Assembly (NCBI GenBank): GCA_016711875.1
Contig: JADJSD010000006.1
Span: 99,470-163,469 of the forward strand
Source of the DNA: Betaproteobacteria bacterium
GTDB taxonomy: Bacteria; Pseudomonadota; Gammaproteobacteria; Burkholderiales; Usitatibacteraceae
DNA: 64,000 bases
Reading direction: 5' to 3'
In this document: one piece after another, positions 17,431-41,019 of the stretch
How the letters are laid out: the number at the start of each line of letters is the position of its first letter
How positions within the stretch are numbered: position 1 is the stretch's first letter
Notes under the pieces: generated by a model
The model's database searches: none
The model's input: the letters and a program-made list of their open reading frames with translations, nothing else
Told to the model about the DNA's origin: nothing
Program-made: the position numbers and the translations under genes

Positions 17431-17471
17431 GCCGGTCCTTGTTCGGGCCGGCGCGCGGCGCGCCGGGCGGA

Positions 17472-20400: not shown

Positions 20401-21730
20401 CGCCATTGGTGCCGGCGCAGGACCAGTCGTACGACGCGTTGCCCGTCGTGACCGCGCTCGCGCCGCCGGCCGAGCACAGGGCCGAAGGCGCCGCGAGGCG
20501 GCTCGTGCCCTGGTCGGCGCCGCACGCGCCGTTCACCTGGGCGATGAAGGTCGCGCTCACGCTGCAGGCCGCAGTGACCGGGGCCGTCGTGTAGGTGTTG
20601 CCCGCGAGGGAACCGCCGCAGCCGGTGACCGACTGGATCACCGAGCCCGCGTTGGGCGCCACGGTGAAGGCGGGCGTGGCGTTGTAGGCGACGTTCTGCG
20701 AGGCGGAGACCGTGCCGCTGCCCGAGGCGACGCTCGTCGTCACGGGGTAGTGGCGGGTCGCCGAGCAGGAGGCCGTGGAGCCGCCGCCGCTGCCCGAGCA
20801 GGACCAGGCGTAGTCCGTCGTTCCCGAGGTGACGGCGCTCGCCGATCCGGCCGAGCACAACGACGTGGGCGTCGTCGTGAGCGTCGCCCCACCGTGCGCG
20901 CCGCACGAGCCGCTCACCACGGACAGCGGCGTCACGGCGTTGCTCGGGCTGGACGGATCGCTGAAGACCGTCGCGCTCTTCTGGGCCGAGACGGTGAAGG
21001 TGTAGGTGGTTCCGTTCGTGAGTCCGCCCACCGTGATGGGGCTGCCGGCGCCGGTCGCCGTGATGCCGCCGGGGGAGGACGTGATGGTGTAGCCCGTGAC
21101 GCCGCTCGAGGCGGAAGGCGTGAAGCCCACCGTCGCGCTGGCGTTGCCGGCGACGGCGGTGACGGCCGTCGGGGCCGCGGGGGCCGTCGGGTTGGCCGTG
21201 GCGCCCGTGACGTTCACGAGCAGGTCGACCGTCGTGCCGTAGGTGTAGCTGCCGCACAGGGCCGGGGAGGCGGCGTACTGCATGATCATGCGCACGTACA
21301 TCGGGCCGTTGTAGGACGAGGACGGGATGCTGATCGAGCCGGAGAAGGTGCGGAACGTCGCGAAATCCGCGTTCTGGTCGAACACGAGCTCGGCCGGATC
21401 CTCGATCGCGCCGTTCTGGTTCTGGTCGAACCAGAACTTCACGTACTCCTGGTAGGAGGTGCCATCCGTGAGCACGTCGACTTCCACCGTGTACGACTGA
21501 CCGGCCTGCAGGGTGGCGACGGCCGTGGCTGTCGCGTCGTGGTAGCCCGTCTTCGGTATCGTGACCGAGGTGCCGTTGATGGCGACGCGGGTCACCCATT
21601 CGTAATTCTGGTTGGAGCCCACCGAGGAGCACAGAGGCGAGACCGCGCGCGCGGGCGGCGATGCCGCGATGACGAGCAGCGCGAGGAAGGCGAGCAGGGA
21701 GCCTGCGAGGCCTCGGGATCGGGAGTTCAT
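17472..21730 (-). CDS. Giant secreted surface protein 1, with one frameshift near the 3' end as assembled. Domains: GEVED-like N-terminal domain, FN3, 4 x Cys-motif + InlB-B-type modules, Ig-like domains, FG-GAP/VCBS repeats.
   Basis: Start ATG (comp.) 21728-21730 with signal peptide MNSRSRGLAGSLLAFLALLVIAASPPARA. ORF 17123..21730 is coherent up to ...DVVDFDGDFADDLVLED (about 17708) and then becomes Arg/Pro nonsense. A 1-nt shift at about 17705-17713 gives PNHQVAIATLGRDYAISSLTAVPAGGDWRLVQVADFDGDGGLDLLFTSGAGELKSLRYRNGAFLGVVVLSHPTAWRVLP* (stop comp. 17472-17474), which is colinear with the paralog's C-terminus. FG-GAP-type motifs present: FDGDGKDDLLV, DLDADGQADLVL, FDGDGRTDLVL. Confidence 0.8.
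19382..20914 (-). repeat. Four tandem coding repeats of about 126-129 codons inside giant gene 1
   Basis: Protein residues about 273-783. Each unit is N-G-A-C-G...(L)C(S/T)(A/T)G...Y(D/A)WSC(A/S)G...(S/T)ASC.A.R.Y, then ...SG.GT.SASQNV.Y.ATP.F.V.P.AG.V.QSV.GCGGSL.G..YTT..(V/I)TA.C.V.ATF(V/I)A. Confidence 0.85.
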
Positions 21731-21842
21731 GGGTTGACCTCGTGGGGATGGCGCACGGATGCGGACTCATCCAGCCTGATCCCGCCGTCTGCCGTTCGAT
21801 CGCCGGAAAAGAAGGGTGATGACGGTTCCCGGTTGACCTGCG

Positions 21843-21873
21843 TCAACGAAGAACGCCGGCCCGAAGGCCGGCG
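21843..21873 (-). terminator. Rho-independent terminator candidate after giant gene 2
   Basis: On the minus strand, CGCCGGCC-TTCG-GGCCGGCG (plus-strand 21854-21873) is followed by TTCTTCGTT. It lies 24 nt downstream of the inferred stop at 21898. Confidence 0.5.
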
Positions 21874-21897
21874 CTTCCCGGGGGGGCGGCGAACGTC

Positions 21898-24800
21898 CTA
21901 GGGGATCACGCTCCAGCGCAGCGTCGGCAGGTGGATCACCGCCTCGCCCTCGTACAGGCCCCCCGCTGGTACAGCGCCGTGACCACTTCGCCCCGGTCGC
22001 TAGTGAAGAGCAGGTCGAGGAAGCCGTCGCCGTCGTAGTCGCCGACCTGCCAGAGCTTCCAGTCCGAGGCCTCGGCGAGCGTGCCGATGCTCAGGCTCGC
22101 CAGCTCCTGCGCGAAGTAGGCGATGGAGACCTTGCCTTCCGGGCTCACGAGGATCAGGTCGTCGATGAAGCTCGCGTCGAAGTCCACCACGTCCGTCACC
22201 TTCCAGCCCGCCGGCACGGCGTTCACCGACTGCTGCGCGAGGGCGATGCCGTCCAGGCGCCAGACCATCACGTGGCCCTTGAAGTCCTCGAAGACGAGGT
22301 CCGTGCGGCCGTCACCGTCGAAGTCGCCGGTGTGGGTGAGCGCGTAGCCGTCGCCGGGCATCGGGAAGTCCGCGTACTCGGCGGCGGCGCCGTTCTCGAT
22401 GCGCTGCAGGCGGAGGCCGGTCGGCGTGCGCAGGACGAGATCCGCATGGCCCAGGCCGTTGAAGTCGGCCACGAGCGCGAACTCGATGCCCTCGCCCGGG
22501 ACCGTCACGTCGATCGTGCCCTGCACGCGCCCGGCCTTCATGAGCGCGATGGCGAGCGATCCGTCCAGGCGCTTCACGAGGAGGTCGTCGATGCCGTCGC
22601 CGTCGAAGTCCGCGAACGCGAGGACCTTCGTGCCGGCGGGAATGTCGGTGAAGTCGGCGCGCTTCAGGATGCCGATGCCCTCGAGGCTCACGATCTGGAA
22701 GCGGCCGTCCTCATGCTCGATGAAGACGTCCGGGTTCGCGTCCCCGTCGAAGTCGCCGAAGCCCGTCACGTGCCAACGCGAGCCTTCCGGCAGCAGGTTC
22801 TGCCCGTCGGAAGGGACGCGGTCGCGGCCGTTGATGGTCTGGATGGAGAAGCCGCCGTCGGCCGTCTCGTAGAAGAGCGCGGTGCGGCCGTCGCCCGTCA
22901 CGTCACGGCCGCGCGAGCCCGGATTGGTGGCCTTCACGACCATCGCCTGGGCCGGCGCGTGGCCCGCCTTGTAGTTGGTGTCGCCACCGTAGCGGGCCGT
23001 GGCCGGGCGCTGGCCGACGGGCAGGCGGTTGGTCGCGCATTCGGCCTTGCCCTTGGAGAGCGTGACCCTGGCGCAGCCGGGGATCACGTTGTCGCCGTAG
23101 TAGAAGCCCACCTCGCCCGTGACTTCCTGGTAGCTGCCTGTCGCCTCGAAGAAGAACGTGACCTTCGAGCGGTACCTGGCCGGCGCGGGGTTCGCGGCGA
23201 GCGCGAGCCGGGCGTCGAGCCGGTCGATGATGACCGTTTGCGTCACCGAGACCGGGGCGTGGTAGTTGTCGTCGCCGCCTTGCGTCGCGACGATGGTGCA
23301 GGCGCCCGGACCGATCGCGCGCACCGCGTTGCCTTCGACCACGCAGACCGACGGCGTGAGGGTCGAGAGCGTGACCGGGGACGTGGACGGGCCGCCGGTC
23401 GGGTTCGCCGTGGTGTGGGTGCCCAGGGTGATGGTCGGCATCGGGGGCAGTGTGATGACCTGCGCGCCACGGCCGACCGCGACCTGGAGCAGGACCTGCG
23501 GAGCGGGGTTCCAGTCGGCGGTGCCTTCCTGGTCCGCGGCGATGACGCACGTGCCCGCGACGAGGCCGCTCACCGTGTTGCCCGAGAGCGCGCAGACGGC
23601 CGGGGTCACGTTCGAGAACACCACGGGCCTGCCGGAGGCGCCGCCCGTCGCGCCGACGCTGCCGCTCGTGCCGACGGTGACCGTCGGGGCCGGGGCGAAC
23701 GCGATGGCCTGGTCCCCCTCTGCCGATGGTGAAGGTGAGTGTGCCCTGCGGGCGCGGCCCGGGTGGGGTACGCGGCATTGCCCGAGGCCTGGTTGGCGGT
23801 GAGGTGTGCCTCGCGGGCCCCCCCCCCCCCGGCGGATGCAGCTGCCCGCCGTGATGCCGGTGACGGTGCTGCCCGCGAGGCTGCAGACGGCCGGCGTGGT
23901 GTTCGCGAGGACGACGGCAATGCCCGAATCGCCGCCGGTGACCGAGACCGTGCCGCTGCCGGAGACGACCACGGCCGGGATCGTGCCGAAGGTGATGGAC
24001 TGCGGGGCCTTCTCGACGGCGGCGGAGGCGACCGAGCAGGCCTCGACGCCCGAGGCGACGCCGGTGGCGGCCTTCGGGGTCACGCAGTAGAAGAGGTACT
24101 TGCCGACGTCGCCGGCCTGGATCACGTAGTTGCGCGTGACGCCGCCAGTGACGCCGCTCGCCACGACGACGTTGTCGCCCGCCGTGACGAGGGTCGCGTC
24201 GTCGGAGAGGATGAAGCGGTAGGCGGAGCCCGAATGCGCCCTTGTCCTGCAGGGTCGCCGTCGGCATCGTGATAGGCGTACGTGCCCGCCACGCCGCTCC
24301 CGAAGCGCGGGGTCGCCACGGCGTTGGGCGCGATGGCCACGGATTGGGCCACGGGCGCGACGTTCGCGAGGAACGAAGCGCTCACCGTGCAGGCCGCCGT
24401 GACCGGGGCCGTCGTGTAGACGCTGCCCGAGAGCGAGCCGCCGCAGCCGCTGACCGACTGGAGCGAGTAGCCCGCGGCCGGCGTGACGGTGAACTGCGGC
24501 TGCGCGTTGTATGCCACGTCCTGCGACGGGGTGATCGTGCCGCTGCCGGCCGCGATGCTCGAGCCCACGTGGTACTGGCGCGGGGCGTAGCAGGCGACGC
24601 TGGAGCCGCCGCCGATGCCGGCACAGGTCCAGTCGTAGGAGGTGTTGGCCGAGGAGACCGCGCCGGCCGTGCCGGAAGTGCAGAGCAGGCTGGCCGGGGC
24701 CGAAGTCACCGCGGCGAGGTGCGCGGCGCCGCAGGCGCCGTTCGCGACCGCGAGGCCCGTGCCGGTGAGCGCGACCGTCTCATTGGTGGCGTTGGAACTG

Positions 24801-26143
24801 ACCGTGAGGTTGGCCGAGTAGCCGCCGCCCGCCGCCGGCGAGAAGTTGAGGGTGATCGTGCAGGAAGCCGCCGGGGCGAGCGTCGCGCCGGTGGTGCACG
24901 TTCCGCCCGTCGCCGCGAAACTCGCCGCGTTCGCGCCGCTCAGGTTGAAGCTGCCGAGCGTGAGGTTGCTCGAACCGTCGTTGGTGGCGGTGAAGGTCAC
25001 GGTGGCGCTCGTGCCGCCCATCGCGACACTGCCGAAGTCCGCGCTGGCGGGCGTCACGGTGAGGATGCCGTTGTTGCCCTGCAAGGCGACGGAGCCGGAC
25101 GTGTCGTTCGACGTGACGGTGAGCCAGCCGAACTTCGCGCCCGTGGCGGCGGGCGTGAAGTCCACAACGAGGTTGCACGAGGCGCCCGGGGCGACAAGGG
25201 CGCCCGCGACACATTGGCCCGCGCCACCGGAGGTGACGGAGAAGTCGGATGCGTTGGCGCCCGAGATCGTGAAGGTGCCGAGCTGCAGGTCGGCCGTGCC
25301 CGTGTTGCTCACCACCACCGTCTGCGAGACGGCGGCGACGCCCACCGGCGTGTTGTAGCCCAGGCTCGTCGTGGACAGGTGCAGCTGGGGCAGCTGGATG
25401 GTGCCCGACGGCGGGACGACGGAAGAACCGAAGGCGTCGAAGAGCACGTAGCCGCCGTGGCCGCCCTGCGAGCAGCCGGCCGCGAGCACGTCGATCTCGA
25501 GCGTGTGGCCGAGAGACGAGTCCGGGACGACGACGTCCGTGTTGCGCCAGTTCGTGTAGAACCAGCCGCTGCCCGTGGCGAAGAACTTGGACGGGTCGCC
25601 GGCGTAGACGAATTCCTGCCAGAGTATCGTGCCCAGCGTCACGTCCTTGAGCTGCATGAACATGTACGGCTGTTGCGCTGGGCTGTGGCCCGCGGCCTCG
25701 AGGGCCGCCGCCCAGGCGAAGCGGATGTGCAGCTGGCCGTCGGTCGCGTCGCGGTCCGCGTTGGTGACCGTGTCCTGCTGCTTGATGCGGTTGTAGTTGT
25801 TGCTGTTGCCGTGGTCGCTCGTGTTGTTCGAGTTCACGATGACCGAGTACGACCCCAGCCGCGGCGACTGGATGGCGTTCAGGGTGTTGGCCACGGTCGC
25901 GCTGCCCAGTCGCGAGGTGAGCGTGCGGCCGTTGCCCGGTGTGAGGTTCAGGCTCGAGCCGTTGAACGGACCCGCGCCGGAAAGCGCGGCCGTGGTTCCC
26001 TTCTCGAATTTCCAGGGTCCCGAGTTGTCGAGGGGGAGGGCGCTTTCGAAGCCGCCATTGGTGAAGATGGCATGCGACAGCATCGGCATCGCGAGCAGCA
26101 ACAGGGCCGCGACCGCGGCGATCGACGTGGTGAAGCGCTTCAT
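21898..26143 (-). pseudogene. Giant secreted surface protein 2, a paralog of 17472-21730, with the frame broken at 5 or more places as assembled. Domains: CBM4_9-like N-terminal domain, 2 x choice-of-anchor-D-like domains, one Cys-motif + InlB-B-type module, Ig-like domains, FG-GAP/VCBS repeats.
   Basis: Start ATG (comp.) 26141-26143 with signal peptide MKRFTTSIAAVAALLLLAMPMLSHA, then IFTNGGFES. ORFs 24122..26143 and 21936..24164 are one gene. Joining them needs a 1-nt shift near 24231-24247 (...GTYAYHDADGDPAG / HSGSAYRFILSDDATLVTAGDN...). Three more switches occur within 23714-23830. A last one at the C6 run 21959-21964 leads to LYEGEAVIHLPTLRWSVIP* (stop comp. 21898-21900). Confidence 0.8.
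23818..23830. repeat. Homopolymer C13 (G13 on the coding strand) inside giant gene 2
   Basis: Read directly from the sequence: ...tcgcggg ccccccccccccc ggcggatgc... Confidence 0.95.
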
Positions 26144-26299
26144 GGGGGACCCTTCCCGATCTGGTAGGCAACGTGTTTACGGTTGCAAACAGGTCGGGCT
26201 TGAGGAGCCGCGCCAAATATTCGGAGAAAGGAGGGCTTCCCGGGGCGGTGACGCGAATGCGCCGGGCTTTAGAAAGCCATTTGAAACAGGGGGGTTGCG

Positions 26300-26849
26300 C
26301 TATCCGCGGTCGGCGGAATGGAGGCAGGAGGGTTCGATTGTCAGCGAATGCTCACCTGCCGACAGCCAGATCTGCCCTTCCTGCAGGGTGGCCTGCAGCT
26401 TCACGCGTTCCGCGCGGCGAGCTTCGCGCAGGCGCGCGTGATCTCCGGGGCAGCGCGATGACATCGAGGTTCTTCTGGCGCGAAAGCGCCTCGCCGTTCT
26501 GGCGCTACCCAGATCTCCGCACCAGTTCCGTAGACGAACACCGCGACCCGCTCGCGCGCCCGCAGGCCTTGCGGATCTCGCGCTCGTCCGGCAGGCCCAC
26601 GTCGATCCACAGGTCGATGGCGCCGGTGAGGTCCGTGAGCACCAGGTCGGCCTCGCCCTCGCTCGACAGGCCGCGGCCGAACTCGAGCCGCTCGTCGGCG
26701 TTCATCGCGAAGGCGAGCACGCGCACCATCATCCGCTCGTCGGTTTCGGACGGGTGGCGGGCGATCGTGAGCGCGTGCGTGGCGAAGTGGCCGCGGTCGA
26801 GGTCCGAGACGACGATCTCGGCCTTGAAGATGGTGGCCTTGAGGGCCAT
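26300..26849 (-). pseudogene. yaeQ: YaeQ-family protein, multiply frameshifted as assembled
   Basis: [99 protein letters not shown] is intact. The remainder ([15 protein letters not shown] / RQNGEALSRQKNLDVIALP / EITRACAKLAARN / KLQATLQEGQIWLSAGEHSLTIEP) is spread over three frames between about 26300 and 26570. Confidence 0.75.
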
Positions 26850-26853
26850 CGGG

Positions 26854-27149
26854 CTACTTCTTCTGCTGGGCTTGTCGGCCGGGGCGGTGAGCGCGGCGCG
26901 CAGGAGCGCATCGACGGTCTGGTTGATGTCCTCGCCGGCGGCTTCGGCGCGATCGCGCAGCTGCTTCACCAGGTCGCCGTGCAGCTTGCACGCGAAGGGA
27001 ACGAGGCCGGCGGCCGCGTCGAGCCGGCGCTGTTCCTTGCGGTCGGGCATCTGGGCCACGCCCTTGCCGTAGCGATCGGACACGCCGCCGTGGCGGACGG
27101 CATTCTCGGCCTTGAGGGCCGCGTTCTTGTGCAGGTCGGTGAGCTTCAT
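26854..27149 (-). CDS. Small hypothetical protein (about 98 aa), with the 3' end frameshifted into yaeQ as assembled
   Basis: ATG (comp.) 27147-27149 is preceded by GAGG. The protein reads [90 protein letters not shown].... A 1-nt shift near 26870 gives ...RQAQQKK* with its stop (comp. 26854-26856) 4 nt before the yaeQ ATG. Confidence 0.5.
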
Positions 27150-27233
27150 GGGGACTGCCTCGAATCGGGTAACCCGCCATTCTACGCGTGCGGGGGGCAG
27201 TAGAATGGCGCATTGCTCCCGAAAGACCCCGCC

Positions 27234-28692
27234 ATGACCGCCCGCCCGAACCTTTCCGCCATCGACCACGAGGCCCTCGCTCGCCGGATCGACCGCCAGT
27301 GGGATGCCGAAATCGTCCCGCAACTCGTCGAATACGTGCGTTTGCCCGCCAAAAGTCCCATTTCGACCTGGATTGGGAGAAGAACGGGCATATCGAGGCG
27401 GCCATCCAGCAGGCGCGCCGGTGGGGGGAAGCGCAGGGCGTGAAGGGCCCCGGCCCGAGATCGTGCGCATCGCCGGGCGCACGCCGGCCCTCTCTTCGAC
27501 ATTCCCGCCACCCGCGGCGCCTCGGACGAGCGCCCGGTGCCTTCTACGGCCACTCGACAAGCAGCCGGAAATGACGGGCTGGCGCGAGGGACTCGGCCTG
27601 GATCCCCGTCTTCGAGGACGGCAAGCTCTACGGTCGAGGCGGCGCGGACGACGGCTACGCGGTCTTCGCGGCCCCTGGCGGCCATGATTGCCTCGATGCG
27701 GAAGGCATCGCCCGGCCGCGCTGCGTGGGCCTTATCGAGACGTGCGAGGAAAGCGGCAGCTCGACCTGCCCGCGTACCTCGACCTCCTCGCGCCGCGCAT
27801 GGGCGAGGTGGCGCTGGTCGTCGCCCTGGACTCCGGCGCGCGGCAACTACGAGCAGCTCTGGGTCACGACCCGCTGCGCGGCCTCGTGAACGGCACGCTC
27901 GAGGTGAGCATCCTCGACGAAGGCGTGCACTCGGGCGACGCGGGCGGCATCGTGCCTCGTCCTTCCGCATCGCGCGGCAGGTGCTCGATCGCATCGACGA
28001 TTCGCGCACGGGCGTGGTGAAGCCCGCGGCCTTCAACTGCGACAGTTCCCGCCGACCGCCCCTCGCGCAGGCGCAGCAGGCGGCGGGCGATCCGGGCGAT
28101 TCGGTCTGGAAGCGTTTCCCGTGGGCGGCGTGTTGCGACGACCACGGCACGGCCTCGCTCTTCGCCGAACCGGTGACGAAGGATCCGACCGAACTGGTGC
28201 TGAACCGCACCTGGCGCGCGGCCCTGGCGGTCACCGGGCGCCGATGGACTTCCGCCCAGGGGCCCGCTGGCAACGTGCAGCGCCCTCACGACGAAGCTGT
28301 CGCTGCGCATCCCGCCGCTCGTCGATGGCCCCGCCGCGGTGCGCACCTGAAGGGGAGCGCTCGAGGCGGATCCGCCCTACAACGCGCGCGTGGTCTTCGA
28401 GGGCGATTCGGCCGCCACCGGCTGGAACGCGCCGCCGGCCGCGCCTTGGCTCTCGGCGGCTCCTCGACGCCGCCTCGATGGCGAATTCCGGCAGCCCGCC
28501 GCCTACATGGGCGAAGGCGGCACGATTCCCTTCATGGGCATGCTGGGCGTGAAGTTCCCGAACGCGCAGATGCTCGTCACTGGCGTGCTGGGCCCGAAAT
28601 CGAACGCGCACGGCCCCAACGAGTTCCTGCACGTGCCCTATGCCAAGCGCGTCACCGTCGCCACCGCGATGGTGGTGGCCGCCGCGCCTTGA
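27234..28692 (+). pseudogene. M20-family metallopeptidase (dipeptidase-like), heavily frameshifted as assembled
   Basis: Fragments across three frames: [42 protein letters not shown] / [22 protein letters not shown] / [19 protein letters not shown] / [17 protein letters not shown] / [14 protein letters not shown] / LEVSILDEGVHSGDAGGIVP / AYMGEGGTIPFMGMLGVKFPNAQMLVTGVLGPKSNAHGPNEFLHVPYAKRVTVATAMVVAAAP*. Confidence 0.8.
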
Positions 28693-28697
28693 GGGAG

Positions 28698-29756
28698 GTG
28701 CTCGCGGCGATCGCGCTCGGGGCGATCGCGCCGGGCGCGTCTGCCGCGCCCACGGCGGAAGCGCTCGAGGCCTCGCGCAGCGCTTCCCGGCGATCGCGCC
28801 GCGGAGCGCGGTAAGGCCCGTTTCGAGTCGATGCTGGCGCCCGCTCCTTGGCGCCCGCGCGGCCCGCCGAGCCTGCGGCGCGCACGATGCCCACCACGGA
28901 CCTCGGCCTGGACAGGGCGCTTCGGCCTCGCAGTTCCGCCGCCTGTGGGCGACGCCAAGGAGCGCCTGGTCCGACGCCGGGGAGTACCACGGCACTATTT
29001 CCCGCCCGCCTTCCGCGCGAAGAACCCCAGCCTCGTGGCCGTGCGGGCGGGCGAGGGCGCGACGCCTGTGCTCCTGCCTTCGGAACGCCAGGCGACCGAG
29101 GCCAAGTTCCAGTTCTCGTTCAGGGGCCATCTCTGGCCCCAGGACGATCGCGGTCGCCACGACCTGTGGTTCGGCTACACGCAGGTTTCCCATTGGCAGC
29201 TCTGGAACGGCGACGCCTCGCGTCCCTTCCGCGAGTCGAGCTACGAGCCCGAACTCATCTACACCTACGAGCCGGCGCGCCTCGACTGGGCCGGTTGGCG
29301 CGTGGGGCACTTCGGGCTCTCGCTCAACCACAACTCGAACGGGCAGGGCGGGGAACTCGCGCAGCTGGAACCGCGCCATCGCCTTCGTGCGCGCGGAGAA
29401 GGGTTCGACGCTCGTCACCCTGCGCGCATGGACGCGCCTGCGCGAGAACGGCATCGACGACAACCCGGACATCGAGGACTACTACGGTCGCGCGGACCTG
29501 CAGGTCTCCCGGGTCTTCGCGAACGGCATGCAACTCACGGCCACGGGGCGGCATACGCTGCGCACCGGCGCCCGCAACCGCGGGGCAATCCAGCTGGACC
29601 TCTCCGCGCCCCTGTGCCGGGATTCCTGACCGGCGTGGATCGCGTCGACAGCGCGCGCTACGTGCAGGGCTACCACGGGTACGCCGAGAGCCTCATCGAC
29701 TACAACCGCAAGGACAGCTACCCGGGAATGGGCTGTCGATAGGCGAATCGCGCTGA
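28698..29756 (+). pseudogene. pldA: Outer-membrane phospholipase A (OMPLA/PldA-type), heavily frameshifted as assembled
   Basis: Fragments: signal-like VLAAIALGAIAPGASAA; EAKFQFSFRGHLWP...LWFGYTQVSHWQLWNGDASRPFRESSYEPELIYTYE...GHFGLSLNHNSNGQGGE / SRSWNRAIAFVRAEKGSTLVTLRAWTRLRENGIDDNPDIEDYYGRADLQV / YVQGYHGYAESLIDYNRKD. The exact start and stop are uncertain. Confidence 0.7.
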
Positions 29757-29812
29757 AACGACCGTTTACCTCGAGTGACGGGCCGCGCGGGACGGAGCGC
29801 TATCAGGGCGCC

Positions 29813-31039
29813 ATGAGCGCATCGCCGACCCCTCCCCGCCGGCCGCCGCCGCTTCCCGCCCTTGTCATCGTCGCCTTCCCGGGCGCTGGCCGCGCTGGGT
29901 GCCTGGTGGCTCGCACGGGACAGAGCCCGCAGGCCGCCGCCAAGACCGGTCCCGCGGCCGTGCCCGTCACCGCCGCCGTCGTCGAGAAGCGCGATGTCCC
30001 GGTCACCGCGCGGAAACGGCTCCGGCGATCGCGATCCAGTCGGTTGACCTGCGTGCGCAAGTGACCAGCACCGTGCGCGAGGTGCACATCCGCGAGGGGC
30101 AGAACGTGAACAAGGGCGACCTGCTCGTTCCTCGACTCGCGCGCGGACGAAGGCCAACGTGAAGAAGGCGGAGGCGCAGGTGCAGAAGGACCTCGCGGAC
30201 CTCGCCAACGCGAAGCGCACGCTCGAGCGCCAAGCAGCTCTTCGCGCAGAAATTCATCGCCCAGTCGGCGCTCGATGCGGCCGAGAACCAGGCCGCCTCG
30301 CTCGAGGGGCAACTCGCGGTGGACCGCGCGGCGGCGGAATCGGCCAAGGTCTCGCTCGCCTACACGCAGATCCGCGCGAGCTTCGCCGGGCCGCACCGGG
30401 GCCATCGGCGTGCGCCCGGGCAGCGTCGTGCAGCCCAACGGCGCGGTGCTGGTCACGGTGACGCAGATCGACCCCATCCAGGTCGCCTTCACGCTGCCGG
30501 AAAAGGAATCGCCTGGCCTCGCGAGGGCGATCGCCGCCGGACCGGTCGAAGCCTCGATCACGTCGACGACGATGCCCGGCAGCTCAAGGGGCGCGTGAAC
30601 TTCGTGGACAACGCCGTGGACACCACGACCGGCTTTGATCCGCGCAAGGCGCAGTTCGAGAACCGCGACGCGCCTGTGGCCCGGCATGTACGTCTCGGTC
30701 GCGCTCTCGCCGCGCACGCTCGAGGGCCGCCTCCCGTCGTCCCGGTGCAGGCCCGTGCAGACCGGCCCCGACAGCCGCTCCGTGGCCGTGATCGGCGAGG
30801 AGCGCAAGGTGAGCGCCAAGCTGCTCGTCGTCGCCCCACCTCGACCGGGGCTTCGCGGCCATCACCGGCGTGGACCCCGCGCCCGCGTCGTCGTCGAGGG
30901 CGCACAGAACCTGCGGCCCGGAAGCCTCGTTTCCGTCGGGGAGCCGCCGCGGCGGGTGAAGGGCAGGGCGGGCAAGAGCGGGAGGAACGGGGCGCCGACG
31001 GCGGCGCGCCCCGTCGATGCGGGCAGACGAAAGCGCTGA
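29813..31039 (+). pseudogene. RND efflux membrane-fusion (periplasmic adaptor) subunit, heavily frameshifted as assembled
   Basis: Fragments: VPVTAAVVEKRDVPV / IQSVDLRAQVTSTVREVHIREGQNVNKGDLL / VKKAEAQVQKDLADLANAKRTLER / AQSALDAAENQAASLEGQLAVDRAAAESAKVSLAYTQIRASFAG / GAIGVRPGSVVQPNGAVLVTVTQIDPIQVAFTLPEKE / LKGRVNFVDNAVDTTTG / WPGMYVSVAL / VVVEGAQNLRPGSLVSV. Confidence 0.75.
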
Positions 31040-34000
31040 ACTTCTCCGGAGCCCTTCATCCGCCGTCCGGTGATGACGGTGCTGCTCTCGGCCTCGCTGG
31101 TCGGCCGGCCTCATCGCCTACGACCAGATCCCCATCGCGGCGCTGCCCAAGTTCGACACGCCCACCATCCAGGTGAACAGGGACCTGCCGGGCGCGAGCC
31201 CGGAGAACATGGCCTCGTCGGTCGCGACGCCCCTCGAAGCAGTTCGCGACGATCTCGGGCGTGAGCGTGATCACCTCCTCGTCGACGCTCCGGCAACACG
31301 CAGGTGACGCTCCGAGTTCACCAGGACCGCGATATCGACAAAGGCGGCGGTCGATGTGCAGCCGCCGCGCTTCCGGGCGCAGAGGAACCTGCCGATCCAG
31401 ATGACGAATCCGCCGTCCACCGCAAGGTGAACCCGGCGGACGCGCCCATCATCTTCGTCACCCTCACCTCTCGCCGTCGATGCCGCTGTCGGAGCTCAAC
31501 GGCTTCGCGGAGAACCTCATCTCGCCGACGCTCTCGACGCTCTCGGGCGTGGCGCAGGTGAACATCAACGGGCAGGAAGCGCTTCGCCGTCGGGTGACGG
31601 CGCGGCCGACGCGCTCGCGATCCGAGGCCTCACGCTCGACGACATCGCGACGGCGCTGCACCCTGCCAACGCCAACACGCCCGTGGGGCACTCCCGAAGG
31701 CCCGCGGGAACGCTCACGATCCAGGCGAACCGGCAGGATGTCAAGGCGGCCGGAGTTCGCGCGCATCATCGTCGCCACCCTCCCGGGCGGCCGGGCGGGT
31801 AGCGCCTCGAGGACGTGGCCGACGTCGAGGACAGCGTCGAATCCGACAAGACCGAGCTGGGCCAACGGCGAGCACGCGCCATCACGCTGTCGATCCAGCG
31901 CCAGCCGACGCCAACACCGTCGAGACGGTGGACGCCATCAAAGCGGCCATCCGGGCCTCGTCGACCAGATGCCGGGCTCGGTGAAGCTCTCCACCATCCG
32001 CAACGACCGCTCGCAGTCGATCCGCGAGGCGATCCACGACGAAGGTGACGCTCGGGATCACCATCGGGCTGGTCGTGCTGGTGATCTTCCTCTTCCTGCG
32101 CCACCCGACGGCGACGCTCATCCCGGTGCTCTCGCTGCCGATCTCGCTGCTGGGCACCATCACGCTCATGAAGGCGATGGGCTACACGCTGGACAACGTG
32201 TCGCTCCTGGGCATCACGCTCGCCGTGGGCCTGGTGGTCGACGACGCCATCGTGATGCCCGAGAACATCATGCGGCACGTGGAGGAGGGCGAGACGCCGA
32301 TGCGCGCGGCGCTCCGCGGGTTCGAAGGAGATGGGGTTCACCATCGTCTCCATCTCGCTTTCGCTCGTGGCGGTCTTCATCCCCATCTTCTTCATGCCGG
32401 GCGTGATCGGCGGGCTCTTCCACGAGTTCGCGGTGGTGGTGGCCGCTCGCGATCCTGGTCTCGGCGGGCGTCTCCTCACGCTCATCCCGATGCTCGGGGC
32501 GCGGTTCCTGCACCGTACCCGCGAGGACGACCCGTCGCTGCGCTGGACGGCGTGGTTCGAGCGGCTCTTCCGCGCGACGCTCGCCTTCTACTGCCGCGCA
32601 CGCTCGAGTGGTGCCTCGTGCACCGCGGCGGCGTGCTGGCCGGTGGCGGGGCGACCTCGTCGCCACGGTCGCCCTCTTCGTCACGATGCCCAAGGGGCTT
32701 CTTCCCGCAGGAGGACCTGGGGCAGGTCTCGTCGTCACCTGTGGAAGCCGTCGAGGACATCTCCTTTCCCCGGCGATGCGACGCTGCTGCAGCAGGTCAG
32801 CAAGGCCATCGGGATCACCCGGCCGTGCTGTCGGTCATCGTGAACGCCTCCGACTCGAACAGGGCGCATCTTCATCAACCTGAAGGGGCTGCGCGAGGCG
32901 CGCGCCGATGCGCAAGGTCCTCGAGGCCTGCGGCGCGGTGCGCAAGATTCCCGGGGTCGCCGTCTACTCCCATCCATCCGAACCTCCGCCTCGGCGAGCG
33001 CATCAACAAGGCGCGCTACCAGTTCGTCCTGAAGAGCGTGGACGATCGCGGCCTGCAGGAAGGCGCCACCCGCATCATGGCCCTCATGCGCTCGGACGGG
33101 GCCTACCGCGACGTGACGAGCGATTCGCAGCTGCCAGGCCTCCAGGCGCAGCTCAGCATCGACCGGGACAAGGCGAACGCGCTGGGCGTGCAGGTCGGGA
33201 CATCCGCGGCGCCCTCTACAGCGCGTTCGGCGAGCGGCGGGTCTCCACCATCTTCACGGCGACCGGCTCCTACGCGGTCATCCTGCAGGCCGGCACCAAC
33301 GACCGCGTGGACGAAGGCGCCTTCGGCAAGATCCACCTGCGCGCCAAGGGCGGCGCCCTGGTGCCGCTCACCTCGATCGCGAGCGTGGGCGCGAAGGTGG
33401 GCCCGGTGTCCATCAACCACCGGGGCCAGCTGCAGGCAATCCACGATCTCGTTCAACCTCGCGCCCGGCGCCTCCAGGCGAGGCCGCGAAGAAGCTGGAG
33501 CGGTTCAAGTCCGAGGCGGGCCTGCCTCGATCATCCCACCGGATGGGGCGGCGACGCGGCCGCCTTCCAGGCCTCCCAGTCGAGCCAGGTGTGGCTCATC
33601 ATCGGCGCGCTCCTCGTGATCTACGTGCTGCTGGGCGTGCTCTACGAGAGCTACATCCACCCCATCACCATCCTGGCGGGACTGCCTTCGGCCGCCGTTG
33701 GCGCGCTCGTCACGCTGTGGCTCTTCCGGCATGGACATCTCGATCATCGCGGTGATCAGCGTCCTGATCCTCATCGGCATCGTCAAGAAGAACGCGATCA
33801 TGATGATCGACTTCGCGCTCGAGGCGCAGCGCACGCGCTCACTCGCCCCGCCGCGGCCATCCACGAGGCCTGCCTGCTGCGCTTCCGGCCGATCACGATG
33901 ACGACCTCCGGCGCTCGCTGGGCGCCCTGCCGATCGCCCTCGGCCTGGGCGCGGGCGCGGGCTTCGCCAGCCGCTCGGCCTCGCCTGTGGTGGGCGGCCT

Positions 34001-34064
34001 GCTGCTCTCGCGGGCCGTGACGCTCTACATCACGCCCGTCATCTACCTCGCGCTCGACCGCTAG
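31037..34064 (+). pseudogene. RND (HAE1, MdtB/C-like) efflux permease, shredded by dozens of indels as assembled
   Basis: Fragments in all three frames: NFSGA / FIRRPVMTVLLSASLV / AGLIAYDQIPIAALPKFDTPTIQVNRDLPGASPENMASSVATPLE / YRKVNPADAPIIFVTLTS / MPLSELNGFAENLISPTLSTLSGVAQVNING / VTLGITIGLVVLVIFLFLRHPTATLIPVLSLPISLLGTITLMKAMGYTLDNVSLLGITLAVGLVVDDAIVMPENIMRHVEEGETPMRAAL / GFTIVSISLSLVAVFIPIFFMPGVIGGLFHEFAVVV / ...GGLLLSRAVTLYITPVIYLALDR* (TAG 34062-34064). Confidence 0.8.
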
Positions 34065-34199
34065 TCGGCCGCAGGCCGGTGCCGGTGGAGTCAGTGCTTC
34101 CGGGGCGCAGCCGCCGATTAGTCCGCGTTGACGCGGATCAGGCCGCGCAGGCCGCGCTGCGCGAAAGATGGACTTTTCACCCCCGATTCGAGCCGAGCC

Positions 34200-35340
34200 A
34201 TGGCCACGACACCGACGTCCCGCTGCAAAGCGGATCCGCAAACGCCCTTCCGCGACCACCGGCGGCGGGCACGGCGAACCGCGCCCGCCCGGCACGGCGC
34301 GCCCGGGACCGCGCCGCACGGCCGGGGGGACACGCCCCCGTGCTGGAACCCGCCGCGATCGAGGCGTTCACCGTCGAGCAGGCCGGCGCGGCGGCCGACG
34401 AGCACGGTGGGCGCGATCCGCGACCTCCTCGAAGGCACGAGCCGTCGGATGCCGTGCGCGTCCTCCGCTCCGTGCTCGAGCAACAGCGCGGCCTGGACAA
34501 TCTCGCGCCGGGCCGCGGACCGCGAAGCTCGCCGACAACTGGCAGGAAGGCGGCTACCCCTACAGACCTGCTCTCCCGCAAGAGCTACGAGCGGCAGAAG
34601 TACCGCCTGCAGGTGGAACTGCTCAAAGCTCAGGCGTGGGTCGAAGGACACGGGCCAGCGCGTCATCGTGCTCTTCGAGGGCGCGATGCCGCGGGCAAGA
34701 GCCGGAACCATCAAGCGTTTCACGGAGCACCTGAACCCCCGCGCGCGCGCGTGGTGGCGCTCGAGAAACCCACGATCGAGGAGCGCGGCCCAGTGGTACT
34801 TCCAGCGCTACGTGGAGCACCTGCCGACGGCCGGCGAGATCGTCCTGTTCGACCGCAGCTGGTACAACCGCGCCGGCGTCGAGCGCGTGATGGGCTTCTG
34901 CACCGACGCCGAGTACCAGGAGTTCATGCGCCAGGCGCCGGAGTTCGAGCGCATGCTGGTGCGGCAGGGCATTCACGTCTTCAAGTTCTGGTTCTCGGTG
35001 AGCCGCCGGGAGCAGCGCCGCCGGTTCAAGGAGCGCGAGGGCCAACCGCTCAAGCGCTGGAAGCTCTCGCCCATCGACAAGGCCTCTCTCGACAAGTGGG
35101 ACGACTACACGCGCCAAGGAGGCGATGTTCTTCCACACCCGACACCACGGACGCGCCGTGGATCGTGATCAAGAGCGATTGCAAGCGCGCGCGACTGAAC
35201 GCCATGCGCTACCTGCTGCACAAGCTTCCCTATGCGCGCAAGGACCCGACATCATCGGCGCGCTCGATCCGCTCCTCGTGGGCCGGGCGCAGGTGATCTT
35301 CGAGCAGGGCGAGCACGTCGCCTCGATGCCTTCGCCATGA
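34200..35340 (+). pseudogene. ppk2: Polyphosphate kinase 2 (PPK2), frameshifted several times as assembled
   Basis: Fragments: SYERQKYRLQVELLKAQAWV / DTGQRVIVLFEG / RDAAGKS / GTIKRFTEHLNPR / ARVVALEKPTIEERG / QWYFQRYVEHLPTAGEIVLFDRSWYNRAGVERVMGFCTDAEYQEFMRQAPEFERMLVRQGIHVFKFWFSVSRREQRRRFKEREGQPLKRWKLSPIDKASLDKWDDYT / DTTDAPWIVIKSDCKRARLNAMRYLLHKLPYARKDP. The start is approximate. Confidence 0.75.
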
Positions 35341-36080
35341 CGGGCGGCCCGGTGACCGCGCGCCGCGCGGCGGCGGCGATCGTCGCCGTCGCGGCGCATG
35401 CCAGGACAGCGGGGCGCTGCCAGGCGGGACGCGCGACTGGCTCGTCGAGCTGAAGCGCCAGACACCAGTCGCGGAACCGCCGAGTCGACACCGCAGGTGA
35501 AGATCGACGCCTGCTCGGGGCCGCTTCGCCTTCGCGCGGCTCGAGCTGCCCTTTCCCGACCGACCGATTCCGAAGGCGCGTTCGATCCCCGGTTGGGCGA
35601 CGTGAAGGCGCGGCTTGCCTGCCAGGCGGTGACGGTCGGCGGGCCGGCTTTCCGAGCTACATGGACCGACCTTTCCCACCGGCGACCCGGATTCGCTGGG
35701 CACCGGCAAGTACCAGTGGCCGGCCGGCGTGCATACTCGCTGCCGCTGGGCGCGGGGCCCGGCGGCACGCAGCCTCGACCTCGCTGCAGGGCGAGCCAGG
35801 CCGTCTCGTTCGGTGGCGATGCGGCGCGCAAGGACGCCCACCAGACCAAGTTCGAATGGGACTGGCGCCTGGACCACCGGCCGGCCATTTCGCGAAGCTG
35901 GTCGCCAAAGCCGACATCGACTGGACGCAGGATGGCAAGACCGGCGCCGTCCTGGAGCTCGAAGGCGGCGGGCCGTCTCGCGAGACTGGACGCTCATCCT
36001 GCTGGGCGGCGGGCTCCTCTGGGGCGAGGGCGTTCCGGGACCTACGGACGCCGCGTGGAGATCGTCTTCGCTTCGCTTTT
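35337..36080 (+). pseudogene. Degraded ORF for a secreted protein of unknown function
   Basis: ATG 35337 overlaps the ppk2 stop (ATGA), and the N-terminus is signal-like (MTGGPVTARRAAAAIVAVAAHA). Sensible peptide stretches are scattered over three frames (RFAFARLELPFPDRPIP, GKYQWPAGVHT, FGGDAARKDAHQTKFEWDWRLD, FAKLVAKADIDWTQDGKTGAVLELEGGG, DWTLILLGGGLLWGEG). No family was recognised. Confidence 0.35.
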
Positions 36081-36395
36081 GACCGCCGGCGGCGCGCGCA
36101 CACCACGACGACGCGTACGCGGTTGGGCGCGGACCGGAGGTTGAACGGCACGGCCGTGCTCTTGCCGCCCTTCACCGTGACGGTCTTCGTGACGGGGTGT
36201 CGAGGCCCGTGGCGATCGAGGCCTTGCAGGTCGCGTTCGCCTTTCCTTGCTCACGAACGTGACGACCAGGGGCGTGCCCGCCGAGGCCTTCACCTCGATG
36301 GCGAGGCCGTTCGTCTTCGCGTCGATCTCGACGGGATAGGTGGCGGCGGCGGGCGAGGCGGCAAGGCACAGCAGGGCGGCAAGGGCGGATCGCAT
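36042..36395 (-). pseudogene. Small secreted protein of unknown function, frameshifted as assembled
   Basis: ATG (comp.) 36393-36395. [51 protein letters not shown], then GKANATCKASIATGLDTP, then VTKTVTVKGGKSTAVPFNLRSAPNRVRVVVV lie in three different frames. The 3' end is uncertain. Confidence 0.4.
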
Positions 36396-36443
36396 GGCTT
36401 CCTCTAGAATCGCGGTATCGAACTCACTCCGACAGCTTCCGCC

Positions 36444-37843
<1,400 letters not shown>

Positions 37844-37853
37844 CGGGGCCGCC

Positions 37854-38788
37854 TTGAAGGACCGATGGGCCGGCTTCGCGCGGGCGCCGGCCTTCGAGTC
37901 TGCGCTCGCGTGGTACTTCGTCCTCGTCTGGGGATCGGGCTACGTCGCCACGAAGGCGGGCTTGGCGGACGCGCCGCCCTTCACCTTCCTGGCGCTTCGC
38001 TATGCGTTCGGCCTGTCGCTGCTCGTGCCGGCGATGCTGTGGCTCCGGCCGCGCTGGCCTGCGTCGCCGGGCGAGTGGGCGCACGTCGTGGTCGCGGGCC
38101 TGCTCATGCACGCCGTGAACCTCGGCGGCAGCCACTATGCGCAGTACCTCCGGATGACGGCGGGCGTCACGGCGCTCGTCCTGGCCATGCAGCCCCTCGT
38201 CACGGCGGTCGTCTCCTCGCGCTTCCTGGGCGAGCGGCTGGGGTCACGGCAATGGGCCGGCGTGGCACTCGGGCTCGCGGGCGTGGCGCTCGTCGTCTGG
38301 CACAAGGTCGACGTGCGCTCGGTCACGGCGGGAAGCCTCGCGGGGATCTTCATCTCCTCGCGGCGGTGACGGCGGGCACGCTCTACCAGCGTACCTTCTG
38401 CCCGCACGCGGACCTGCGTTCGGCGGCCCTCGTGCAGTTCGCTGCCTCGTTCGCCGTGCTCGCGCCCGCGGCCTTGGCGATCGAGGGCTTTCCGTGCGCT
38501 GGAGCGTCGCTCGCGCTCTCGATCGCCTACCTGGTCATCGGCTCGTCGATCTTTCGGGGTGAGCGCGCTGCACACGCTCATGCGGCGCGGGCAGGCGACG
38601 CGGGTGACGAGCATGCTGTACCTCACGCCGGTCGTGGCGGTGGCGCTCGAGGCGCTGTTCTTCGGCGTGGTGCCCACGGCGCTCACGGGGGCCGGCATGG
38701 CGATCGCCTTCGCGGGCGTCGCGCTCGTCACGCGGCGGTGGCGGCGAGCCCGGGGACCGCTAGGCCTTCCGGACGAACTCCGACTTGA
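37854..38788 (+). pseudogene. DMT-superfamily (EamA-like) permease, with 2-3 frameshifts as assembled
   Basis: ORF 37854..38369 (...AWYFVLVWGSGYVATKAGL...GVALGLAGVALVVWHK...SLAGIFIS) breaks near 38355. It continues as AVTAGTLYQRTF...LALSIAYLVIGSSIF in the frame of ORF 37865..38788, then breaks at the G-run near 38553-38557. It continues as VSALHTLMRRGQATRVTSMLYLTPVVAVALEALFFGVVPTALTGAGMAIAFAGVALV in the frame of ORF 38559. The stop position is uncertain (38763 or 38788). Confidence 0.7.
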
Positions 38789-39102
38789 GCTTCATGGGCC
38801 CGATGCCCTCGACCTTGCAGTCGATGTCGTGGTCGCCCTCCACCAGGCGGATGTTCTTCACCTTGGTGCCGACCTTCACCACCAGGGACGAGCCCTTGAC
38901 CTTCAGGTCCTTGATCACCGTCACCGAGTCGCCGTCCTGGAGTTCGTTGCCGTTCGAGTCTCGCACGAGGAGGCCGGCGGGCGCGGCGTCGGCGGCCGCG
39001 GCGCGGTCCCATTCGTGGGCGCACTCCGGGACAGACGAAGCGCTCGCCGTCTTCGTAAGTGAACGTGGAACCGCATCGGGGGCAGGGGGGCAGGGCGCTC
39101 AT
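38760..39102 (-). CDS. yjdM: Zinc-ribbon protein YjdM/PhnA, with one frameshift near 39026-39030 as assembled
   Basis: [25 protein letters not shown] (ATG comp. 39100-39102), then ECAHEWD... in the next frame, then ORF 38760..38966 ([67 protein letters not shown]). Confidence 0.85.
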
Positions 39103-39201
39103 GTCGTGTCGGGAGGGATGGGGGATCGCATCATTATCCCCGTGTTCCCGGCCGGGCCATTCGCGGCACAATGCCGGCTTCCGACCCGCGAAAGGCCGCC
39201 C

Positions 39202-39816
39202 ATGCAACTCGTCGGCATGCTCGATTCCCCCTACGTGCGCCGCGTCGCCATCTCGATGAAGCTGATGGGCATCGACTTCGAGCACCGGCCCGTCTCCGTC
39301 TTCAGGCATTTCGAGGCCTTCCGCGAGGTGAACCCCGTCGTGAAGGCGCCGACGCTCGTGTGCGACGACGGCGTGGCCCTCATGGATTCGACGCTGATCC
39401 TCGACTATCTCGAGTCGCGGGTGCCGCCGGACCGCCGCCTGATGCCGCCCGGGGGCCTCGAGCGGCGCGAAGCGCTGCGGCTCATCGGCTACGCGCTTGC
39501 CGGCTGCGACAAGTGCGTCGCGCTGGTGTACGAGCGCGAGCAACGCCCGCCCGAGCGGCGCCACGAACCGTGGGCGGAGCGATCCCTGGGGCAGGCCTCG
39601 GCGGCCTTCTCCGTGCTCGAAGACGCCGTGGGGAATGCGAGGCCGTGGCTGCAGGGCCCGGAGCCGAACGCGGCCGACGTCGCCGCGGCCGTCGCCTGGC
39701 GCTTCGCGCAGTACTACAACGCCGAACTGCTGCCGGCCTGGAAGTTTCCGGCGCTGGCCCGGTACTCGGCGGCCGCCGAAGGCTTGCCGGTCTTCGCATC
39801 GACCCCGCTCGATTGA
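39202..39816 (+). CDS. Glutathione S-transferase family protein
   Basis: 204 aa from ATG 39202. MQLVGMLDSPYVRRVAISMKLMGIDFEHRPVSVF...VKAPTLVCDDGVALMDSTLILDYLE is the thioredoxin-like GST N-domain. Confidence 0.85.
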   Translation: MQLVGMLDSPYVRRVAISMKLMGIDFEHRPVSVFRHFEAFREVNPVVKAPTLVCDDGVALMDSTLILDYLESRVPPDRRLMPPGGLERREALRLIGYALAGCDKCVALVYEREQRPPERRHEPWAERSLGQASAAFSVLEDAVGNARPWLQGPEPNAADVAAAVAWRFAQYYNAELLPAWKFPALARYSAAAEGLPVFASTPLD

Positions 39817-39882
39817 CGGGGGCTTGAACTCGGGGCTTCCCGCCACGATCTGGCGTGAGGTCGATCCCTGCCGGAAGCTCCC

Positions 39883-40953
39883 ATGAAGAAGCCCATCATC
39901 CTCGTCGCCGCGCTTGTCGCGGCGGCCGCCGCCTTCTCCCCGTTCGCGCAGAAGGGCGGTTCGCCGGAATCCCGGCCCGTGTCGCCGCGGGGCCCGCTCC
40001 TGGCGCAAGAGCAGGCGCTCACGAGCCTCTTCGAGAGCGCCGCGCCCTCGGTGGCGTACATCACCACGGAGCGGCTGGAACGCACCAGCTTCTTCACGGC
40101 CGAGGTCGCGAAGGGGGCCGGCAGCGGCTTCGTGTGGGACTCGCAGGGCCACGTGGTCACGAACTTCCACGTGCTGCAGGGCGCGCGCGGGGTCACGGTG
40201 CAACTCGACGCGGGCCAGCGCATCCCGGCGACCCTCGTGGGCGTCGCGCCCGACTACGACCTCGCCGTGGTGAAGCTCTCGCAGGTTCCCAGGGACCTGC
40301 GGCCCATCCCCGTCGGCTCCTCGAAGGAGCTGCGCGTGGGCCAGTCGGTGTTCGCCATCGGCAATCCCTTCGGCTTGTCGCGCACGCTCACCACGGGCAT
40401 CGTGAGCGCGCTCGACCGCCACCTGCCCACGAGCGAGTACCGCGAAATCTCGGGCGCGATCCAGACGGACGCCGCGATCAACCCGGGCAACTCCGGCGGA
40501 CCGCTTCTCGATAGCGCCGGGCGGCTCGTCGGCGTGAATACCGCCATCCGTTCGCCTTCGGGAGGCTCATCGGGCGTGGGCTTCGCGATTCCTGTCGACC
40601 TCGTGAACCGCATCGTTCCCCAGCTCATCGCACGCGGGAAGGCGGCGTTGCCGGGAATCGGCATCCGCGCGGTGGATCCGATGATCGTCGCGCGCGCGGG
40701 GCTCACCGGCGTGGTCGTCGCCGACGTGATGCGCGGCTCGCCGGCGGCGGAGGCCGGCCTTCGCCCCGTGGACCGCAAGACGGGCGAGGTAGGCGACGTG
40801 ATCATCGCGGTGAACGGCCGGCCCGTCGAGGCGATGGGCACCTTCGCCGCCGAGCTGGACCGCGCCGGCATCGACAGCACCGCCGAGCTCACCGTCCAGC
40901 GCGACAAGAAGGAACGCAAGGTGCGCGTGAAAGTGATCGACGTGCAGCGCTAG
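39883..40953 (+). CDS. Periplasmic S1C (HtrA/DegP-like) serine protease with one PDZ domain
   Basis: 356 aa with a signal peptide. Catalytic triad context: TNFHV (His), DLAVVK (Asp), GNSGGPLLD (Ser). A C-terminal PDZ-like domain is present (GVVVADVMRGSPAAEAGLR...GDVIIAVNGRPV). Confidence 0.9.
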   Translation: MKKPIILVAALVAAAAAFSPFAQKGGSPESRPVSPRGPLLAQEQALTSLFESAAPSVAYITTERLERTSFFTAEVAKGAGSGFVWDSQGHVVTNFHVLQGARGVTVQLDAGQRIPATLVGVAPDYDLAVVKLSQVPRDLRPIPVGSSKELRVGQSVFAIGNPFGLSRTLTTGIVSALDRHLPTSEYREISGAIQTDAAINPGNSGGPLLDSAGRLVGVNTAIRSPSGGSSGVGFAIPVDLVNRIVPQLIARGKAALPGIGIRAVDPMIVARAGLTGVVVADVMRGSPAAEAGLRPVDRKTGEVGDVIIAVNGRPVEAMGTFAAELDRAGIDSTAELTVQRDKKERKVRVKVIDVQR

Positions 40954-40958
40954 AAATC

Positions 40959-41019
40959 GGGGACAGGTGAATTTGGGGACAGGTGTAATTTTCACCTGTC
41001 CCCAAATTCACCTGTCCCC
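40959..41019. repeat. Perfect 61-bp palindrome: 27-bp arms, 7-nt loop TAATTTT, four copies of GGGGACAGGTG
   Basis: 40959-40985 GGGGACAGGTGAATTTGGGGACAGGTG; loop 40986-40992; 40993-41019 is the exact reverse complement. It starts 6 nt after the protease stop and ends 62 nt before the parE ATG. Confidence 0.95.

Follow-up and report, generated by a model that had tools for sequence, protein, structure and literature searches.

A stretch of 64,000 nt (the window) from the assembly of a Betaproteobacteria bacterium (contig JADJSD010000006.1 of GenBank assembly GCA_016711875.1) contains a block of genes, coding among others for an RND efflux pump, the outer-membrane phospholipase A OMPLA and the polyphosphate kinase PPK2, that can be read solely by hopping between frames. 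Comparison of this block with related sequences makes it very probable, in our view, that it is not biology but long-read sequence, raw or barely corrected, that was missed in polishing. The dense error core spans some 9.1 kb (27300..36430) and takes in genes of both strands as well as intergenic DNA. Its error density is about 4.9 events per 100 nt, and for roughly every two substitutions there is one insertion and one deletion, each of 1-2 nt. The original prediction, made from the letters of the window, had favoured an unpolished or single-read long-read patch over pseudogenisation, and this is supported here by intact independent assemblies, by lesions that are private to the window, by the error spectrum and by a clean flank.

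The G+C content of the window is about 70%, at which open reading frames (ORFs) alone are uninformative, and we therefore used the G+C content of third codon positions (GC3) instead. A GC3 phase scan showed that the phase with the highest GC3 is constant over stretches of 0.5-4 kb in the flanks; over ~26.3-36.4 kb it flips each 100-500 nt, with a few further flips up to 39 kb. Long high-GC3 ORFs tile the flanks and are nearly absent at 26.2-38.8 kb. Frame breaks were located with a Viterbi decoder based on codon log-odds, which was trained on eleven intact flank genes and charged 12 bits for each one-base frame correction. The decoder required approximately 80 such corrections within 26.3-36.4 kb, and the frame switches of the core extend from 27340 to 36416. 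The affected genes of both strands between ~27.3 and 36.4 kb are readable by frame-hopping alone. Outside 12.5-39.1 kb, all decoder switches with coding sequence on both sides coincide with gene-end stop codons; there are no internal frame breaks in the outer flanks (0-12.5 and 39.1-64 kb), as had been predicted for 0-12.5 and 39.2-61.9 kb. A decoder frameshift at the 3' end of asnS (~37826) was rejected as an artefact of stop-codon avoidance, the stop codon being intact there.

Several reference sequences were available for the locus. The DegP-like protease encoded downstream of the core has an identical protein in two metagenome contigs, L001 (ENA) and L002 (JGI sample 3300012533), and the conceptual RND permease, when used as a query, brought up a 90%-identity cluster whose members are intact proteins of 1030 aa. 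L084, an Illumina-style metagenome contig of 3.8 kb, shares its JGI sample with L002; it was taken as the same strain as the window and has an intact RND gene. L083, an ENA metagenome contig from a close strain, has intact genes and contributes a member to the RND cluster, as does L003, which is part of a 955 kb contig in a metagenome-assembled genome (MAG) of a Danish wastewater Betaproteobacteria and represents a sister species. L003 is colinear with the window over 24.5-42.5 kb, with all genes intact; L085, from the same sister species, reaches back to 23.3 kb and its locus is also intact. The same-species MAG proteins MBK8324652 (RND) and MBK8324655 (AsnS) are intact as well and share the distinctive residues of the window. 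L084, L083, L003 and L085 thus all have intact ORFs at the locus and agree with one another, and the lesions are private to the window assembly. Further searches returned more distant sequences: a scan of metagenome DNA with a 30-mer at the start of the M20 peptidase gene found the sister species (L085) only and not the window's strain, a PPK2 protein search with a listing of its cluster gave the sister species only, and a scan of genome collections with PPK2 gave relatives at no more than 84% among the matches listed.

It can be seen from the alignment of L084 with window positions 30440-34271 (3832 nt) that the two differ by 95 substitutions and 92 indel events (45 insertions and 47 deletions), together 4.9 per 100 nt. 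The substitutions fall on codon positions 1, 2 and 3 in the numbers 26/32/35, and the indels are of 1-2 nt, rarely 3, with none longer. L084, which is not from the same DNA preparation as the window, has none of the window's lesions over 30.44-34.27 kb. The damage had been described in the original prediction as indel-only, with little visible substitution decay, and neither part of that description holds. Substitutions are as frequent as indel events (95 vs 92 in 3.8 kb), and the indel-corrected RND permease differs from that of L084 at 46 of its 1030 residues and contains one internal stop that arose by a nonsense substitution.

Changes were polarised with a four-way MAFFT alignment of the window, L084, L083 and L003 over 3.7 kb. 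The window has 140 private substitutions (39/54/47 by codon position) along with 35 inserted and 36 deleted bases, against five private substitutions and three indel bases in L084. Private substitutions number 70 in L083, 58 of them at codon position 3, and 121 in L003, 80 of them at position 3; those of the window are spread evenly over codon positions and give no sign of selection. Such a pattern, with codon-uniform substitutions and abundant frameshifts, is what relaxed selection would give in a genuine young pseudogene block, in which this strain had lost the function of the efflux pump, OMPLA, PPK2 and neighbouring genes, with neutral decay now under way. Their functions are of an accessory type that a lineage can lose, and adjacent genes with frameshifts and stops but no signature of purifying selection are also seen in the pseudogene blocks of Mycobacterium leprae, Rickettsia and recent host-restricted pathogens. 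However, the window and L084 are sisters with equal time since their split, and third-position changes number 47 on the window branch against four on the L084 branch, a difference of about 12-fold, which excludes ordinary pseudogene decay. Loss of selection lifts the rate at positions 1 and 2 to the neutral level, but it cannot lift the near-neutral third-position rate 12-fold, and the molecular clock is therefore violated. With pseudogene decay excluded, an extraordinary mutational burst or error remain. The excess of substitutions thus strengthens the reading as an artefact, because it is this excess that breaks the clock relative to the sister lineage.

The spectrum of the errors also differs from that of reductive decay. 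In the mutation and pseudogene spectra known from bacteria, indels are much rarer than substitutions and are biased toward deletions, larger ones included. In the window the ratio of indel to substitution events is approximately 1:1, insertions balance deletions, all of these indels are of 1-3 nt, and where a close reference exists (L083, L084) no deletion exceeds 4 nt. AT-to-GC changes occur at 3.1% per site and GC-to-AT changes at 1.2% per site (2.6-fold, window vs L084), the opposite of the universal GC-to-AT bias in bacterial mutation described in PMC2936535. All six complementary substitution pairs are skewed alike, with 62 changes from purines and 33 from pyrimidines (p=0.0014), and deletions of G exceed those of C (30 vs 17); strand-skewed substitutions together with an excess of G over C deletions are what reads of a single molecule, all of the same strand, would be expected to give. 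The balance of indels, the reversed base bias and the strand asymmetry all speak against a young pseudogene block, as do its left boundary, which lies inside a gene, and the presence of like lesions in the neighbouring asnS, yjdM and EamA genes. The same strain is, moreover, intact in an independent metagenome. We consider such a block highly unlikely.

Runs of identical bases are affected in a characteristic way. One-base insertions copy a neighbouring base in 26 of 36 cases (72%), and the length of runs of 1, 2, 3 and 4 nt is wrong in 1.9%, 4.6%, 10.3% and 9.1% of cases, respectively. None of the three runs of at least 5 nt is correct, two being of the wrong length and one changed otherwise; runs of at least 2 nt are shortened in 30 instances and lengthened in 11. 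A homopolymer scan showed that runs of at least 5 nt are scarcer in the core than in the clean flank. These features bear on the possibility that the changes are real, and that a localised hypermutation (an error-prone repair or replication tract) scrambled about 9 kb in one step. Such an event would explain why the clock is violated and the boundaries are sharp, and also why the spectrum is strand-asymmetric and non-canonical. However, the shortening of homopolymers and the neighbour-copying insertions are signatures of sequencing instruments, and we know of no bacterial process that yields ~2.5% substitutions plus ~2.4% indel events of 1-2 nt over 9 kb. Approximately 3% of bases would be involved in indels, yet the adjacent DNA is ~99.9% identical to the sister strain. 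Similar sparse lesions, several of which lengthen or shorten short runs, extend over a further 17 kb, which fits a gradient of consensus quality rather than a single tract. We therefore give hypermutation of this kind hardly any credence. More broadly, there is a very small chance that the lesions are real and record a strand-biased, indel-rich mutation burst of ~9 kb in one activated-sludge Betaproteobacterium strain related to the Usitatibacteraceae. Were this so, the RND efflux pump, OMPLA, PPK2 and their neighbours would have been destroyed at once, by a mutational event undescribed in bacteria. Mutagenesis by a diversity-generating retroelement was considered and rejected, as it affects adenines only, makes no indels and reaches ~100 bp.

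A third alternative is that the consensus of the block was collapsed, or pieced together as a mosaic, from two strains or species living side by side, one L084-like and the other L003-like. The window's strain (L084, L002) and the sister species (L085, ~92% identity) do co-occur in JGI sample 3300012533, and mixed read piles can degrade a consensus. Against this, 140 of the ~180 substitutions that separate the window from L084 in the four-way alignment match neither L003 nor L083. L084 and L003 are separated by just two gap openings, and mixing them cannot make ~92 new indels of 1-2 nt, so that a mosaic origin is also most improbable. Phase-variable tracts and programmed frameshifting share with the core a change of frame at short runs, but they act at one defined site per gene, and both were rejected.

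The left edge of the core, which was set using references at ~92% identity, falls some 100 nt into the M20 peptidase gene, between 27278 and 27356, and the right edge lies between ~36250 and 36440, just before asnS. When the frame-corrected proteins were run against Pfam, YaeQ (full length), Peptidase_M20, PLA1, HlyD, PPK2 and EamA were recognised. Together with homologs of the RND permease and with L003 orthologs of two secreted proteins of unknown function, this bears out the gene identities that had been proposed. Each gene in the core carries 15-27 indels per kb of a length not divisible by three relative to L003, irrespective of function or strand; these amount to ~190 across the seven genes, and most lie away from long runs. 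The errors thus ignore biology, being uniform over codon positions, present on both strands and bounded by an edge inside a gene, which we take as a mark of an artefact.

The first of the seven genes, for the M20 peptidase (27231..28690, plus strand; PF01546), has 23 frame-breaking indel events relative to its intact L003 ortholog. Its first lesion lies at ~27340-27356, and one of the sites traced in the prediction, at ~27357, agrees with a base that is missing at ~27356. The OMPLA gene (28693..29742, plus strand; PLA1, PF02253, E=6.7e-57) has 20 such events, and the gene for the RND membrane-fusion adaptor of the HlyD type (29813..31039, plus strand; HlyD_3 and HlyD_D23), the 3' part of which is covered by L084 and L083, has 29. 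The RND permease of the HAE1 type (31035..34121, plus strand), which was assigned from homologs and the L084 alignment, has 69, and its start codon is lost to a 2 nt deletion; its homologs (P0001 and P0121-P0129) are all intact, with 1030 aa. Two further traced sites fall within this gene and were borne out by the alignments, one near 31052 as an extra G at ~31051 and the other, where about seven frame switches had been proposed between 31290 and 31560, as eight indel events between 31290 and 31470. The PPK2 gene (34200..35340, plus strand; PF03976, E=2.2e-85) has 29 events and its orthologs are intact. The gene that we term unk1 (35340..36090, plus strand), for a secreted protein of unknown function, has 20; its L003 ortholog of 252 aa has a signal peptide and gave no Pfam match. 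The last gene, unk2 (36030..36400, minus strand), codes for a small secreted protein of unknown function and matches an intact ORF of 139 aa in L003 (11572-11991, minus strand); on the minus strand the decoder placed corrections at 36244, 36194 and 36087. Between unk2 and asnS, L003 has ~1.4 kb of DNA (11910-13331) that is not present in the window's species (36398-36458) and includes a stop-to-stop frame of 231 codons on the minus strand (12583-13275). In this respect the two lineages genuinely differ in structure.

The flank to the right of the damaged region (39132..43899), which covers genes for a GST, the DegP-like protease, parE and the start of parC, served as a clean control. L001 matches it at 96.9% identity, with 146 substitutions and no indels in 4825 nt, and its mismatches are distributed 15/6/124 over codon positions, 85% being at position 3. 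L002 matches at 99.1% overall, with two mismatches in 39132-41150. We conclude that the genome of the window and the metagenome populations are very close, and that the flank is under ordinary purifying selection. Between the protease gene and parE, a stretch of 61 nt (40959-41019) matches itself when reverse-complemented (95% in both L001 and L002) and is probably a terminator or a REP-like palindrome.

Three tiers of quality can be seen in the window: clean, sparsely damaged and raw-read-like. The first, at 0-12.5 and 39.13-64 kb, would be of short-read grade. The second, at ~12.5-27.3 and 36.4-39.13 kb, would be of long-read-consensus grade, with occasional 1 nt indels of which several change the length of short runs. 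The third, at ~27.3-36.43 kb, with ~5% error, would be of raw-read grade and derive from one or very few long reads. Most likely, one or very few single-molecule reads, all in one orientation, would have supplied the consensus of the patch, which was built into the contig and then missed by both long-read and short-read polishing. The real locus of the organism would be intact, and essentially identical to L084 and to the same-species MAG proteins. Polishing would have failed from low depth or because the draft was too divergent for short reads to map. A mixture of co-occurring strains can confuse the recruitment of reads in polishing, and might be the reason for its failure here.

Gene-fragmenting errors in long-read assemblies, and tools that deal with them, are described in PMC12007338 (Kastor), PMC8812927 (Polypolish) and PMC8011154 (Homopolish). 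The window resembles the residual errors of nanopore or PacBio continuous long-read (CLR) assemblies in its 1-2 nt frameshifts in all ORFs, in proteins that can be recovered by frame-hopping, in its clean polished neighbours and in its shortened homopolymers. Unlike the usual residual error after polishing, which is ~0.01-0.1% and mostly a matter of homopolymer length, the core has an error of ~5%, in which substitutions equal indels in number and the preference for homopolymers is only weak; it is of raw-read grade and limited to one block of ~9 kb. The Danish activated-sludge MAG project, which provides the closest public genomes, used nanopore reads with Canu (corMinCoverage=0), Racon (--include-unpolished), medaka and Illumina polishing (PMC8012365). 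As we read them from their names, the Canu and Racon options keep uncorrected sequence. We make no claim that the window originates from that project; the example shows no more than that patches of this type are to be expected from pipelines applied to such organisms.

Five points weigh against the interpretation of the core as unpolished long-read sequence. First, the same-strain reference spans 3.8 kb of the ~9.1 kb core, and for the remainder we relied on the sister species at ~92% identity. Second, the strand asymmetry is weaker in the MAFFT alignment (82 vs 58), so that this statistic depends in part on alignment settings. Third, the expected enrichment of indels in homopolymers was weak only, which is unlike the residual errors of typical polished nanopore assemblies though it fits raw-read error; for this reason we liken the core to raw reads rather than to a consensus. 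Fourth, the density of errors within the core is uneven, with five events per 300 nt at 32.24-32.54 kb compared with a mean of ~14. Fifth, beyond the observed spectrum, lineage restriction and boundaries of the errors, the origin from a single read and the platform, which would be more nanopore-like than PacBio-CLR-like, are what we infer from them.

The relevance of the finding is confined to quality control. Taken at face value, the contig would yield a dozen false pseudogenes and would suggest, wrongly, that the organism had lost an efflux pump, OMPLA, PPK2 and even asnS. The region at 27.3-36.4 kb should be masked or re-polished before analyses of gene content, pseudogenes or selection, and 12.5-39.1 kb should be treated with caution. 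The comparison with a sister-lineage clock, combined with the spectra of codon position, GC/AT direction and strand symmetry, provides a reusable test of read error against decay that needs no reads.

The original prediction had all genes between 26300 and 36443 shredded. This stands for the core at ~27.3-36.43 kb but not for yaeQ and the adjacent small ORF, which have isolated indels only, and sparse lesions reach far beyond the block, from ~12.54 to 39.13 kb. The yaeQ gene (26300..26853, minus strand; PF07152 at full length on the corrected protein) lies outside the dense core and has four isolated indels of 1-2 nt, at ~26395, 26448, 26502 and 26560, in surroundings that are conserved relative to L003 and L085. 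The small ORF of ~99 aa (26854..27150, minus strand), for which no Pfam match was found, is intact save in its last codons, where 1 nt is deleted at ~26866, again in surroundings that are otherwise conserved. Some 470 nt without indels (26.87-27.34 kb) part these two genes from the core.

To the right of the core, asnS (36444..37843, plus strand), identified from homologs as coding for asparaginyl-tRNA synthetase, was aligned to four relatives and its gaps listed relative to L003. It has a single cluster of lesions at 36999-37017 (-2 and +1, net -1), which truncates the frame after about codon 186; the same-species AsnS protein (P0253) is intact, with 466 aa. We count a cluster of frame-breaking lesions in a housekeeping gene in favour of an artefact. 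The window's AsnS also has several residues unlike those of all members of its 90% cluster (such as L to P in GAGELFRV, T to S in RYGTVPHAG and D to H in ANVRDVIPF), which suggests low-level substitution error beyond the core too. The EamA-family transporter gene that follows (37850..38760, plus strand; PF00892) has lesions at ~38357 (-1) and ~38552 (+1, TT to TTT), as located by the decoder and the list of gaps relative to L003. In the yjdM/phnA-like zinc-ribbon gene (38760..39131, minus strand), alignment of L002 to the window revealed an extra C at ~39024-39026 that breaks the N-terminus, the minus-strand translation losing its frame after FVCP. A cluster of intergenic differences at 39106-39131, beyond yjdM, forms the right-hand end of the low-quality zone.

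Upstream, the zone at 12540..26300 was examined by the decoder, by comparison of paralogs and by the homopolymer scan, and as judged from the decoder and the paralogs it would carry sparse lesions. At ~12520-12560, in a gene for an MFS (TetA-like) transporter, ~19 codons are missing between PPEKRA and GGLLGGVDPRLPF and the frame changes. This lesion is larger than the others and coincides precisely with the left edge of the low-quality zone; it may be a scar of joining or trimming rather than a point error. Tandem paralogous genes on the minus strand (17123-21766 and 21936-26143) code for giant secreted surface proteins of ~1400-1550 aa, with repeated immunoglobulin-like or cysteine-containing modules and an FG-GAP/VCBS-like C-terminal region. 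The first of them has a 1 nt deletion at ~17709 (CCC to CC), and the second required corrections at 23721, 23752, 23828, 24231 and 24274; the internal repeats of these genes may have contributed to assembly or polishing trouble nearby. The correction at 23828 falls on a C13 homopolymer (23818-23830) that lies exactly at the frame break and within ~40 nt that are missing from the sister species; the next-longest homopolymers in the 64 kb are of 7 nt. This tract, which is outside the core, is the sole conceivable candidate for a contingency locus in the window, and could be either an assembly artefact or a genuine tract for phase variation by slipped-strand mispairing.

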